From Escherichia coli O157:H7 (GTDB lineage Bacteria; Pseudomonadota; Gammaproteobacteria; Enterobacterales; Enterobacteriaceae), in assembly GCF_013167455.1 (NCBI RefSeq), contig NZ_CP038328.1: 64,000 nt of DNA; one strand, written 5' to 3'. Under the pieces are notes generated by a model that was not told the origin of the DNA, did no database searches, and worked only from the letters and a program-made list of their open reading frames with translations. Both the position numbers and the translations under genes were made by a program. Below are positions 10,041-21,104 of the stretch, piece after piece. Numbering within the stretch: the first letter of the stretch is position 1; every line of letters begins with the position of its first letter.

Positions 10041-10116
<76 letters not shown>

Positions 10117-10169
10117 GTTTAAAAGACATCGGCGTCAGCGGATGTCTGGCTGAAAGGCCTGAAGAATTT

Positions 10170-10243
10170 GGCGCGTTAACAAAGCGGTTATGTAGCGGAT
10201 TGCAAATCCGTCTAGTCCGGTTCGACTCCGGAACGCGCCTCCA
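10170..10243 (+). tRNA. cysT: tRNA-Cys (anticodon GCA)
   Basis: 74 nt ggcgcgttaacaaagcggttatgtagcggattGCAaatccg...ggttcgactccggaacgcgcctcca. Confidence 0.95.
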
Positions 10244-10255
10244 CTTTCTTCCCGA

Positions 10256-10342
10256 GCCCGGATGGTGGAATCGGTAGACACAAGGGATTTAAAATCCCTC
10301 GGCGTTCGCGCTGTGCGGGTTCAAGTCCCGCTCCGGGTACCA
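10256..10342 (+). tRNA. leuZ: tRNA-Leu (anticodon TAA), intact copy; prophage integration target
   Basis: 87 nt gcccggatggtggaatcggtagacacaagggattTAAaatccc...ggttcaagtcccgctccgggtacca, with long variable arm. Confidence 0.95.
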
Positions 10343-10408
10343 TGGGAAAGCTAAGAATAAAATCAAAGCAATAAGCAGTGTCGTGAAACCACCTTCGGGT
10401 GGTTTTTT
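10288..10408 (+). repeat. attL: left copy of the ~121 bp direct repeat (3' ~55 nt of leuZ plus its terminator)
   Basis: Nearly identical to 31693-31814 (one indel, one mismatch seen by eye). Confidence 0.85.
10385..10408 (+). terminator. rho-independent terminator of the tRNA operon
   Basis: gaaaccaccttcgggtggtttttt hairpin plus T-run. Confidence 0.7.
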
Positions 10409-10880
10409 CGTATTTGTATTTTGTGCAATGGCGGTAGAGTGGCGATGGTGTGGCGATATGCAGAAACAATGGTAGTGCACGTGCTGTTTAAACTCTAAGG
10501 ATGAAGCAGAATTCTTCTGCAGCTCCTCCGTATTTCGCATAGTGAACCAGGACCTCTGTTAAACAAAAATTTTTCTGGGATTTTTCCACTCGACTTTATT
10601 TTTCCTCCTGCAATCCACCAACAGGTACCTGCGCTAATCTATCTTTTTAATCTGACAACATCTTGGGAAAAGGCAAATTCGTCAGATTTACTGTTTTTCT
10701 GCTGCCTCGAATGCCGATGTCTGAAGCACTGATAAGAGTTCTATCTCTTTGATATAGATCTTTTTTTTGATGAATTGCACGACATATTATCGTTATGACA
10801 CCTTCTTGTTAAAGGTATTGTGCTCCTCATCTCGATTTTATGATGTGGGCTATGATTGGTTAGTAATTGAGTGTATCGGT

Positions 10881-11162
10881 ATGCGATGTGGTTTATTAAT
10901 GGCAATCTGCCTTTGTTTAGTATCTTTTAGTGGATATGCAGCAACAGGAAAGTCTGATGCTCAGATCAAAAAAGAAATAATTAAAGAATCCATTGAATCT
11001 TATCCAGGCAATTGTGCGTGTCCTTATAATCATGCAAGGAATGGTAGTAGATGTGGTGGACGCAGTGCATATAGCCGTAATGGAGGGTATGACGTGGTAT
11101 GTTATGAGGGTGATGTTACCGATGAAATGATCCGGCAATGGAAGCAGGAGAATGCTGAGTAA
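10881..11162 (+). CDS. small secreted cysteine-rich protein of unknown function (prophage cargo)
   Basis: ORF 10767-11162; likely start at the ATG at 10881 (MRCGLLMAICLCLVSFSGYA / ATGKSD... signal peptide); 4 Cys in the mature part; AT-rich. Confidence 0.5.
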   Translation: MRCGLLMAICLCLVSFSGYAATGKSDAQIKKEIIKESIESYPGNCACPYNHARNGSRCGGRSAYSRNGGYDVVCYEGDVTDEMIRQWKQENAE

Positions 11163-11261
11163 TCTCTTTTAACAGGTTTGTTGTGCGAGCATTATGTGCC
11201 GTTAACGGTTCACATCCCGAAAATCTGCGCTTCTGGCTGAAAGCCTGTCCGGTGGTCCTTC

Positions 11262-12398
11262 GTGAGCGATTTCATCAACAATGTAAGTGTAGATTCAATT
11301 GGTCAACGCAACAGTTATGTGAAAACATGGGGTTGCGGAGGTTTGGAACTATGGAAGAACGGAACAGGCTTCAGTGAAATAGCGAATATCCTGGGTTCAA
11401 AACCCGGAACGATCTTCACTATGTTAAGGGATACTGGCGGCATAAAACCCCATGAGCGTAAGCGGGCTGTAGCTCACCTGACACTGTCTGAGCGCGAGGA
11501 GATACGAGCTGGTTTGTCAGCCAAAATGAGCATTCGTGCGATAGCTACTGCGCTGAATCGCAGTCCTTCGACGATCTCACGTGAAGTTCAGCGTAATCGG
11601 GGCAGACGCTATTACAAAGCTGTTGATGCTAATAACCGAGCCAACAGAATGGCGAAAAGGCCAAAACCGTGCTTACTGGATCAAAATTTACCATTGCGAA
11701 AGCTTGTTCTGGAAAAGCTGGAGATGAAATGGTCTCCAGAGCAAATATCAGGATGGTTAAGGCGAACAAAACCACGTCAAAAAACGCTGCGAATATCACC
11801 TGAGACAATTTATAAAACGCTGTACTTTCGTAGCCGTGAAGCGCTACACCACCTGAATATACAGCATCTGCGACGGTCGCATAGCCTTCGCCATGGCAGG
11901 CGTCATACCCGCAAAGGCGAAAGAGGTACGATTAACATAGTGAACGGAACACCAATTCACGAACGTTCCCGAAATATCGATAACAGACGCTCTCTAGGGC
12001 ATTGGGAGGGCGATTTAGTCTCAGGTACAAAAAACTCTCATATAGCCACACTTGTAGACCGAAAATCACGTTATACGATCATCCTCAGACTCAGGGGCAA
12101 AGATTCTGTCTCAGTAAATCAGGCTCTTACCGACAAATTCCTGAGTTTACCGTCAGAACTCAGAAAATCACTGACATGGGACAGAGGAATGGAACTGGCC
12201 AGACATCTAGAATTTACTGTCAGCACCGGCGTTAAAGTTTACTTCTGCGATCCTCAGAGTCCTTGGCAGCGGGGAACAAATGAGAACACAAATGGGCTAA
12301 TTCGGCAGTACTTTCCTAAAAAGACATGTCTTGCCCAATATACTCAACATGAACTAGATGAACCGCCCCGGGTTTCCTGGAGAGTGTTTTATCTGTGA
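11262..12398 (+). pseudogene. IS30 transposase, damaged: canonical N-terminus missing, C-terminus replaced by read-through into IS629
   Basis: ORF matches IS30 Tnp from ELWKNGTGFSEIANILG... to ...LAQYTQHELD; the native start (MRRTFTAEEKASVF) is absent and the last ~12 codons read into the IS629 inverted repeat. Confidence 0.7.
11288..12357 (+). mobile_element. IS30 remnant (left IR TGTAGATTCAATTGGTCAACGCAACAG present; 3' end cut off by the IS629-like insertion)
   Basis: IS30 terminal repeat and transposase recognised from memory; the right end with its IR is missing. Confidence 0.75.
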
Positions 12399-12400
12399 AC

Positions 12401-13291
12401 TCAGGCTGCCAGATCATCGTTTCCGATGGAAGCATAATAAGCTTTTTCTGCTTCTGCCGGAGGAGTATGGCCCAGCCTTCCCAGCAATCGTCGATTGTTA
12501 TACCAGTCCACCCACGTTAGTGTGGCCAGTTCCACTTCTGCACGGTTTTTCCAGCTCTTACGGTGTATTACCTCCGCTTTGTAAAGACCATTGATGCTCT
12601 CAGCCATCGCGTTGTCATACGAGTCGCCTGTACTCCCTGTTGATGCCAGTAATCCGGCTTCTTTTAGTCGCTCCGTATAGGCCAGTGACACATACTGAGA
12701 GCCTTTATCGCTGTGATGGATGGTGCCAGACGGACGACGGGCCCACAACGCCTGCTCCAGCGCATCCAGCACGAATGTCGTTTCCATAGACGATGAGACC
12801 CGCCACCCCACGATGTATCCGGCAAACACATCAATGATAAACGCCACATAGACGAAGCCCTGCCATGTGCTGACGTAAGTAAAATCAGCCACCCACAGCT
12901 GGTCAGGTCGTTCTGCCACGAACTGACGGTTTACGCGGTCGCCTGCGGCAACGGCTTTCCGGCTGATGGTCGTACGGACCTTTTTACCCCGGAGAACACC
13001 GGCAAGTCCCATAACCGCCATGAGACGTGCCACTGTACATCTGGCCACCCTGATTCCTTCCCGTAACAACTGACGCCAGACTTTACGCACACCGTACACC
13101 TGATGATTTTCATCGTATACGCGCTGTATCTCTCTCTTCAGCCAGTCGTCGTGCTGCGCACGGGCACTGCGTTTATCCGGATGATGTCGCTGTTGCTGAC
13201 AATGGTAATACGTTGACGGGGCAATATGCAGTTCGCTGCATACCGGTCCGACCCCGTACTGCTCACGCAGCTTATCCAGCAGTGGCATCAT
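12401..13291 (-). CDS. IS3-family transposase OrfB (DDE integrase domain)
   Basis: 296 aa, [16 protein letters not shown]...; rve-type catalytic domain recognised. Confidence 0.85.
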
Positions 13292-13614
13292 TTTTTCCAG
13301 AGGCGGTCGAACTCCGCCTTCGCAAAATAAGCGGAAGCCTGGCGAAGGATATCGTTACTGCGGCGCAGTTCACGATTTTCACGTTCCAGCTCTTTCAGAC
13401 GCTGACGTTCAGCGCTGGTGAGCCCACCATCACCGCCCCCGGTATCCCGCTCATGCTGGCGAACCCAGACACGCAGAGTCTCCGGCGTACAGCCAATCTT
13501 TGGGGCAATGGAACAAATTGCCGCCCACTGTGAGTCATATTCATCCTGACTTTCCAGAACCATACGAATCGCCCGCTGACGGACTTCGGGGGAAAAACGA
13601 GTATTTTTAGTCAT
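13288..13614 (-). CDS. IS3-family transposase OrfA (HTH / leucine zipper)
   Basis: 108 aa, [22 protein letters not shown]...; overlaps orfB as expected for a -1 frameshift fusion. Confidence 0.85.
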
Positions 13615-13668
13615 CCTGTTTACCTCTTTCTCAGGGAGTTTAGTCTCCAGGATTTCCGGGGCGGTTCA

Positions 13669-14354
13669 ACACGATGGCTGAGGCGATTACCTACCGCCAG
13701 AAATTCAACGAACGTGAGGTGATGCTCTTATGGCCTGACTTCATCGCCTACAACCTGAAAAGTGGCAAAAACGAAACGTTCCCCGCGCCTGCTTATGCGT
13801 GCGGCCTTCGTGCGTACATTGACCATGAGCAGGGCTGGCACAAATCGCTGTCCAACGTTCCGGTTAAAAATGTGCTTGGGATGTCGAGGCATGTGTTCTG
13901 GTCGTTGCAGGCCGAAGACAGTGATGCCAACAGCCTCAACAACAAAGAAATCACGACCATTATTCGTCGCAACGGGTTCCGCTTCTGGGGCAACCGCACA
14001 CCGGAAACGAACGCCTACATCTTTGAGGTGTATACCCGAACCGCACAGGTGCTGGCTGATTCAATTGCGGAAGCGCAGTTTGAAACCATCGACAGTCCAC
14101 TGACACCTGCGAACGTGAAGGATGTTATCAGTGCCATCAGGGCAAAACTGGATTCACTGGTTACTGCCGGGAAACTGATTGGCGCGGAGTGCTGGTATGA
14201 CATCGAGGATAACAGCACCACGAATTTACGTCAGGGGCGTGTGCGTATTCGCTACAAATATACGCCCGTTCCTCCGCTGGAAGACATGGAGCTTTACCAG
14301 TCGTTTACTGATGAATTCTTTGGTCCCGCATTTGCGGTGCTGGGAGGTGCCTGA
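13669..14354 (+). pseudogene. P2 FI-like contractile tail sheath, C-terminal fragment (5' end cut off by IS629 copy 1)
   Basis: 226 codons continuing straight from the IS junction; resembles the sheath C-terminus; a full sheath is ~390 aa. Confidence 0.7.
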
Positions 14355-19930: not shown

Positions 19931-20046
19931 GAAGCCAGCCGGAATATCTGGCGGTGCAATATCGGTACTGTTTGCTGGCAGACCTGTATGAGGCGGAATG
20001 TATGCGTCACCTTCACCAATAAATTCATTAGTTCCGGCCAGCAGAT

Positions 20047-21104
20047 TGAACCGCCCCGGGAATCCTGGAGACTAAACTCCCTGAGAAAGAGGTAAACAGG
20101 ATGACTAAAAATACACGTTTTTCCCCCGAGGTCCGTCAACGGGCAGTCCGTATGGTTCTGGAAAGTCAGGGCGAATATGACTCACAATGGGCGGCAATTT
20201 GTTCCATTGCCCCAAAGATTGGCTGTACACCAGAGACTCTGCGTGTGTGGGTTCGTCAGCATGAGCGGGATACCGGGGGCGGTGATGGTGGACTCACCAC
20301 CGCTGAACGTCAGCGTCTGAAAGAGCTGGAACGTGAAAATCGTGAACTGCGCCGCAGTAACGATATCCTTCGCCAGGCTTCCGCTTATTTTGCGAAGGCG
20401 GAGTTCGACCGCCTCTGGAAAAAATAATGCCGCTGCTGGATAAGCTGCGTGAGCAGTACGGGGTCGGACCGGTATGCAGTGAACTGCATATTGCCCCGTC
20501 AACGGATTACCACTGTCAGCAACAGCGACATCATCCGGATAAACGCAGTGCCCGTGCGCAGCGCGATGACTGGCTGAAGAGAGAGATACAGCGCGTATAC
20601 GATGAAAATCATCAGGTGTACGGTGTGCGTAAAGTCTGGCGCCAGTTGTTACGCGAAGGTATCAGGGTGGCCAGATGTACAGTGGCGCGCCTCATGGCGG
20701 TTATGGGACTTGCCGGTGTTCTCCGGGGTAAAAAGGTCCGTACTACCGTCAGCCGGAAAGCCGTTTCCGCAGGCGACCGCGTAAACCGTCAGTTCGTGGC
20801 AGAACGTCCTGACCAGCTGTGGGTGGCTGATTTTACTTACGTCAGCACATGGCAGGGCTTCGTCTATGTGGCGTTCATCATTGATGTGTTTTCCGGATGT
20901 ATCGTGGGGTGGCGAGTCTCATCGTCTATGGAAACGACATTCGTGCTGGATGCACTGGAGCAGGCGTTGTGGGCCCGTCGGCCGTCCGGCACAGTCCATC
21001 ACAGTGATAAAGGTTCTCAGTATGTATCACTGGCCTATACGGAGCGACTAAAAGAAGCAAAACTGCTGGCATCAACAGGGAGTACAGGTGACTCGTATGA
21101 CAAT
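20047..21104 (+). mobile_element. IS3-family IS629-like element, copy 2, 3'-truncated (~1058 of ~1310 bp), inverted relative to copy 1
   Basis: Left IR TGAACCGCCCCGGGAATCCTGGAG at 20047; similarity to copy 1 stops after ...gactcgtatgacaa (~21104). Confidence 0.85.
20101..20427 (+). CDS. IS3-family transposase OrfA
   Basis: 108 aa, nearly identical to copy 1 OrfA (a few substitutions). Confidence 0.85.

Follow-up and report, generated by a model that had tools for sequence, protein, structure and literature searches.

Stepwise decay of an IS30 copy beside IS629 in a P2-like prophage remnant of Escherichia coli O157:H7

In the E. coli O157:H7 DNA analyzed here (a stretch of 64 kb, referred to as the window), an IS30 sequence with its left end and most of its transposase gene lacks the beginning of that gene and breaks off at an IS629 element. 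The locus thus raises the question of how the two losses arose and in what order the two insertion sequences arrived. We consider it very probable that one IS30 copy has decayed here in four steps, inside a P2-like prophage remnant beside tRNA-Leu. IS30 would first have inserted cleanly into a phage gpD gene, with duplication of AG; an internal lesion that turned IS30 nt 58-104 into a single G would then have happened once and been inherited by the O157:H7 lineage; in a sub-lineage, IS629 would have entered between IS30 nt 1117 and 1118, duplicating AGA and splitting codon 352; and in the source strain a deletion of 1,030 bp would have extended from the exact end of IS629. As judged by sequence comparison, each of the first three steps has its intermediate preserved in other genomes, while the fourth is seen as its outcome and the route to it is what we infer. 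This is routine insertion sequence decay of a well-described and already known kind and points to no novel element, mechanism, or function; the locus is a tidy, fully reconstructable case of insertion sequences eroding each other and the prophage remnants that host them.

Extent and coding content of the IS30 remnant

As the IS30 reference we used a full-length copy from strain WCHEC035123, which is 1,221 bp long and encodes a 383-aa transposase at nt 63-1214. The original prediction had placed an intact left inverted repeat at 11288, and the alignment to full-length IS30 bore this out: positions 11288-11344 (plus strand) match IS30 nt 1-57 at 57 of 57 bases and include both the left terminal inverted repeat and a GGAGG ribosome-binding site (11337-11341). 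The deletion joint follows at 11345 (plus strand), where, by alignment and coordinates, a single G stands for IS30 nt 58-104. These 47 nt contain the start codon, ATG at nt 63-65, with exactly 14 codons, and the net loss is 46 bp (about 45 bp, with the first 14 or so codons, had been predicted). Two T-runs, TTTTTT and TTTTT, border the break; slippage between them was rejected as the cause of this deletion, whose product, TTTGG, differs from the outcome of simple slippage.

From 11346 to 12358 (plus strand) the sequence is colinear with IS30 nt 105-1117 and encodes transposase residues 15-351 plus codon 352 minus its final base. The sole substitution relative to the reference, A instead of G at 11996, is common to a sister O157 genome and is the one difference in 1,070 aligned nt; on sequence grounds, a match to IS30 this long (about 1,070 nt) and this close (99.9% identity) cannot be due to chance. 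IS30 nt 1118-1221, which contain the right inverted repeat, are gone, a loss of 104 bp (or of 103 if IS30 is taken to include the T at 12359), in agreement with the roughly 105 bp predicted to be lost where IS629 abuts. No part of this tail was found elsewhere in the 64-kb window, and its relocation by an inversion or translocation between IS629 copies was rejected for that reason. Compared with the 1,221-bp IS30, the remnant is alike in its left inverted repeat and in a transposase with HTH_38 and rve domains (the 2-bp target duplication is seen in the sister genomes), and it differs by the loss of nt 58-104 and of nt 1118-1221, the latter taking with it the final 31 codons as well as the right inverted repeat.

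The remnant lies inside the interval 11262-12398, which had been given as the coordinates of the finding; they belong not to the element but to a chimeric 378-aa reading frame on the plus strand that was taken from the list of open reading frames. This frame starts with a GTG in the gpD flank, 26 bp outside IS30, joins the transposase frame by way of the left inverted repeat, and reaches its stop codon within the terminal repeat of IS629. A complete 383-aa transposase gene with its own start codon is absent, as the ATG with codons 1-14 and codons 353-383 are missing. Both transposase domains are recognized by Pfam (HTH_38, 7.6e-23; rve, 4.6e-14), and the D-D-E catalytic residues are still encoded, in the motifs HWEGD, TWDRG, and GTNEN. 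Past the GGAGG site, the first ATG (11351) lies in another frame and opens an 8-residue peptide; an in-frame TTG (11343) lies one base past that site, and a further in-frame GTG is found at 11319. The latter corresponds to the position at which PGAP begins the gene in sister genomes, where the copy interrupted by IS629 is flagged as a pseudogene. The 5' lesion would remove the start codon but spare the ribosome-binding site and the left end with its promoter.

To judge from its sequence, the remnant is probably without function, the 378-aa frame apparently having no usable start signal and lacking the last 31 residues, and it should be immobile, as had been predicted, because it has neither a right end nor a start codon. 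In RefSeq, the IS30 gene with the 46-bp deletion and an intact tail is annotated as a complete transposase of 378 aa in CEC13091 (L004 1813-2949) or 377 aa in EDL933 (L003 6002-7135), with a GTG start inside the left inverted repeat. With the native start codon lost, annotation as an intact gene probably overstates the case.

Arrival of IS30 in gpD and inheritance of the 46-bp deletion

On its left side IS30 adjoins part of a gpD (late control D) gene of P2-like type (11213-11287, minus strand), recognized by the continuity of its frame and by the empty site. Of the 2-bp target duplication of IS30, the window retains just the left copy, AG at 11286-11287; in EDL933 and CEC13091, AG is present on both sides of IS30. 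Once IS30 and one AG are removed, the gpD frame is open across the joint, and the empty site so obtained recurs base for base in the gpD gene of FHI_NMBU_03. Among the genomes listed, related gpD genes likewise cross the joint as one aligned piece. The AG/AG flanks, the restoration of the gpD frame on removal of IS30, and the uninterrupted gpD of FHI_NMBU_03 together argue that IS30 entered the P2-like gpD by a clean, simple insertion that duplicated the 2 bp AG.

The joint left by the 46-bp deletion was then searched for with a junction-only query of 54 nt centered on it, neither half of which alone is able to seed a match. Of 5,426 complete genomes of E. coli, 254 contained it; the full-length matches listed were all of the O157:H7 type, and in the records inspected they lay in the same chromosomal region. 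The median was one place per genome and the maximum two, a number reached by a single genome, while IS30 in general was matched in 4,723 genomes, at a median of four places each. IS30 copies at other sites that are at least 99% identical retain the extra 46 bp, and EDL933, FDAARGOS_293, and CEC13091 all have the identical 46-bp-deleted IS30 at this position of gpD. Three places matching the joint lie on plasmids; most of the plasmid and two-place cases are probably short partial matches.

The original prediction had named a naturally shorter isoform as the finding that would overturn its reading of the 5' gap as a deletion. Such an IS30 isoform with a shorter N-terminus would fit the RefSeq designation of the intact-tail version as a complete 378-aa IS30 transposase, and the 46-bp loss happens to keep the frame open across the left end. 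It is nevertheless extremely improbable: the joint is confined to those 254 genomes, of the O157:H7 type among the matches listed and with a median of one place, against 4,723 genomes and a median of four for IS30, and the deletion takes away the ATG downstream of the GGAGG site, so that the next one after that site is out of frame. It is because of this distribution that we regard the 46-bp gap as a single old lesion inherited within the O157:H7 lineage, as the compared genomes indicate, and not as a mobile isoform. IS30 is described in PMC10758439 as the commonest insertion sequence in the ancestral strains 493-89 and LSU61.

Insertion of IS629 and the adjoining 1,030-bp deletion

The element that abuts the IS30 remnant at 12359-13668 (minus strand) is, by its terminal repeats and length, a complete IS629 of 1,310 bp (RefSeq name IS1203; IS3 family). 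Its terminal repeats are perfect (TGAACCGCCCCGG), its two overlapping transposase frames (13288-13614 and 12401-13291, minus strand) encode 108 and 296 aa, with a programmed frameshift noted in the RefSeq annotation, and it shows 0 differences from the copy in FDAARGOS_293. It lacks a 3-bp target duplication in the window, being flanked by AGA on the left (12356-12358) and ACA on the right, and this absence is the signature of a later deletion.

A 53-nt query over the joint of IS30 and IS629, unable to seed on either part alone, detected this joint in nine genomes; a 79-nt query over the left junction turned out to be uninformative, as separate IS30 and IS629 pieces were joined into one match. 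In FDAARGOS_293, one of the nine, IS629 sits at the identical IS30 position as in the window, between CTAGA and AGATCTGG; the 3 bp AGA are duplicated, and beyond the element the IS30 tail continues undamaged through its right inverted repeat. Like other IS629/IS1203 insertions in O157:H7, the ancestral arrangement has a complete 1,310-bp IS629 with a 3-bp target duplication. Since sister genomes carry IS629 as a simple insertion, with AGA duplicated and the remainder of IS30 on the far side, IS629 inserted into a pre-existing IS30, and the predicted order of IS30 first and IS629 second holds. The 46-bp deletion is in turn older than the IS629 insertion, because its joint is found in 254 genomes versus 9.

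Eighty O157:H7 genomes, EDL933 and 86-24 among them, have this IS30 without IS629 and with 3 bp (ACT) missing. The missing ACT directly adjoins the AGA duplicated by IS629, and Leu351 is removed in frame (EDL933, L003 7028-7043, corresponding to positions 12346-12364 of the window). A tentative reading, which we put forward with less than even confidence, is that the locus records IS629 insertion, imprecise excision (as in excision promoted by the excision enhancer IEE), and adjacent deletion at one site in one lineage. The ACT gap would then be expected, because IS629 had once been there and was removed imprecisely, and the IS629-free arrangement of EDL933 would be derived rather than ancestral. 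The four alleles at this site (intact, with IS629 inserted, with the 3-bp scar, and with the 1,030-bp deletion) could serve as markers for typing O157:H7 lineages.

To the right of IS629 the window continues with the 3' part of a P2-like tail-sheath gene (13669-14354, plus strand), of which, by comparison with FDAARGOS_293, the first 499 bp are missing. The two sequences are 100% identical over 5,970 nt on the left (to the end of IS629) and over 3,333 nt on the right, and the gap between these blocks is 1,030 bp, with its right edge at the joint 13668/13669 and a 2-nt (AA) ambiguity or overlap there. The missing DNA comprises the AGA to the right of IS629, the 104 bp with which IS30 ends, what remained of gpD, and 499 bp from the start of the tail-sheath gene; in EDL933, FDAARGOS_293, and CEC13091, unlike the window, neither the IS30 tail nor the gpD fragment has been lost and the tail-sheath gene is full. 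As in other IS629-associated deletions of O157:H7, which are strain specific and begin exactly at one end of the element, the deletion starts at the terminal base of IS629. The predicted replacement of the IS30 3' end by IS629 must therefore be divided: the loss and the adjoining IS629 stand, whereas the replacement does not. These comparisons indicate that the tail was removed by a later, strain-specific deletion beside IS629 that reached into the prophage genes.

The joint of IS629 and the tail-sheath gene was found in 0 of 5,426 complete RefSeq E. coli genomes with both a 54-nt and an 80-nt query, so this allele is private to the strain or to unsampled relatives. An apparent full-coverage match of the right junction in CEC13091 consisted of two pieces joined by the tool, the IS629 of that genome being 158 bp away. 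The evidence for the 1,030-bp deletion comes from a single assembly, and an assembly artefact, in which a collapsed repeat would hide either two IS629 copies or the FDAARGOS_293 arrangement, would account for the uniqueness of the right junction; IS629 is, moreover, a multicopy repeat of 1.3 kb of the sort mishandled by short-read assemblers. We nonetheless consider an artefact very unlikely, given that both flanks are otherwise perfect over several kilobases, that the joint falls exactly at the end of the element, and that strain-specific deletions adjacent to IS629 are described as common in O157 (PMC9943667).

As to how the deletion arose, the mechanism that we favor, at roughly even confidence, is that a second IS629 would have inserted nearby in the same orientation and that homologous recombination between the two copies would have removed the DNA between them. 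It is favored because IS629 lands at various positions in this stretch, and in the same orientation in CEC13091. Over these 3 kb (window 10700-14000), IS629 occurs at several positions in 54 O157 genomes, among them the same-orientation copy in the tail-sheath gene of CEC13091, 158 bp upstream, and the region seems to be a local hot spot for the element. Another IS629 is apparently located in the gpD fragment of NCCP 13914. Ooka et al. 2009 is said to be the main paper on IS629 polymorphisms. According to PMC9943667, IS629 is a main source of small deletions in O157, and Ooka 2009 and Kusumoto 2011 are cited there for IS629 insertions and associated deletions in O157:H7.

A one-ended event, in which the IS629 transposase, possibly assisted by IEE, would have driven an adjacent deletion from a single copy with no second-copy intermediate, is a possible but more doubtful route. 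The exact start of the deletion at the terminal base of IS629 would agree with it, as would the fact that, among the 5,426 complete genomes searched, none was found with IS629 on both sides of the 1,030 bp. The deletions reported with IEE, however, accompany loss of the insertion sequence itself (PMC9943667), and the window differs from such excision-with-deletion products in that IS629 is retained. IS3-family elements are described as moving by copy-out-paste-in (bioRxiv 10.1101/2023.06.07.543989), which would make a local hop followed by recombination the simpler route, and other strains show same-orientation IS629 landing in this very stretch. The 2-nt AA overlap at the joint fits any deletion route. 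We thus retain the second insertion followed by recombination as the preferred account.

Prophage context of the locus

The locus lies within a scrambled P2-like prophage remnant of about 21.5 kb. This remnant is bounded by a 121-bp direct repeat (10288-10408 and 31694-31814; 99% match), the left copy of which begins in the 3' part of tRNA-Leu(UAA), a member of a cluster with tRNA-Gly(GCC) and tRNA-Cys(GCA) that was located with ARAGORN (10041-10342, plus strand). The repeats most likely mark the attachment sites. The integrase of the remnant is found at its far end, adjoining yecA.

Besides being truncated, the prophage is rearranged. In phage P2, gpD lies downstream of the tail genes; here (window 11213-11287 and L001 6077-7685) the gpD fragment is head to head with tail genes, namely, those for sheath, tube, E, E', and tape measure. 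A second IS629-like copy at 20046-21103, with 95% identity, the opposite orientation, and one end missing, is annotated by RefSeq at its counterpart in a sister genome as a frameshifted, incomplete IS3-family transposase. The tape-measure gene, too, is annotated as frameshifted in the sister genomes.
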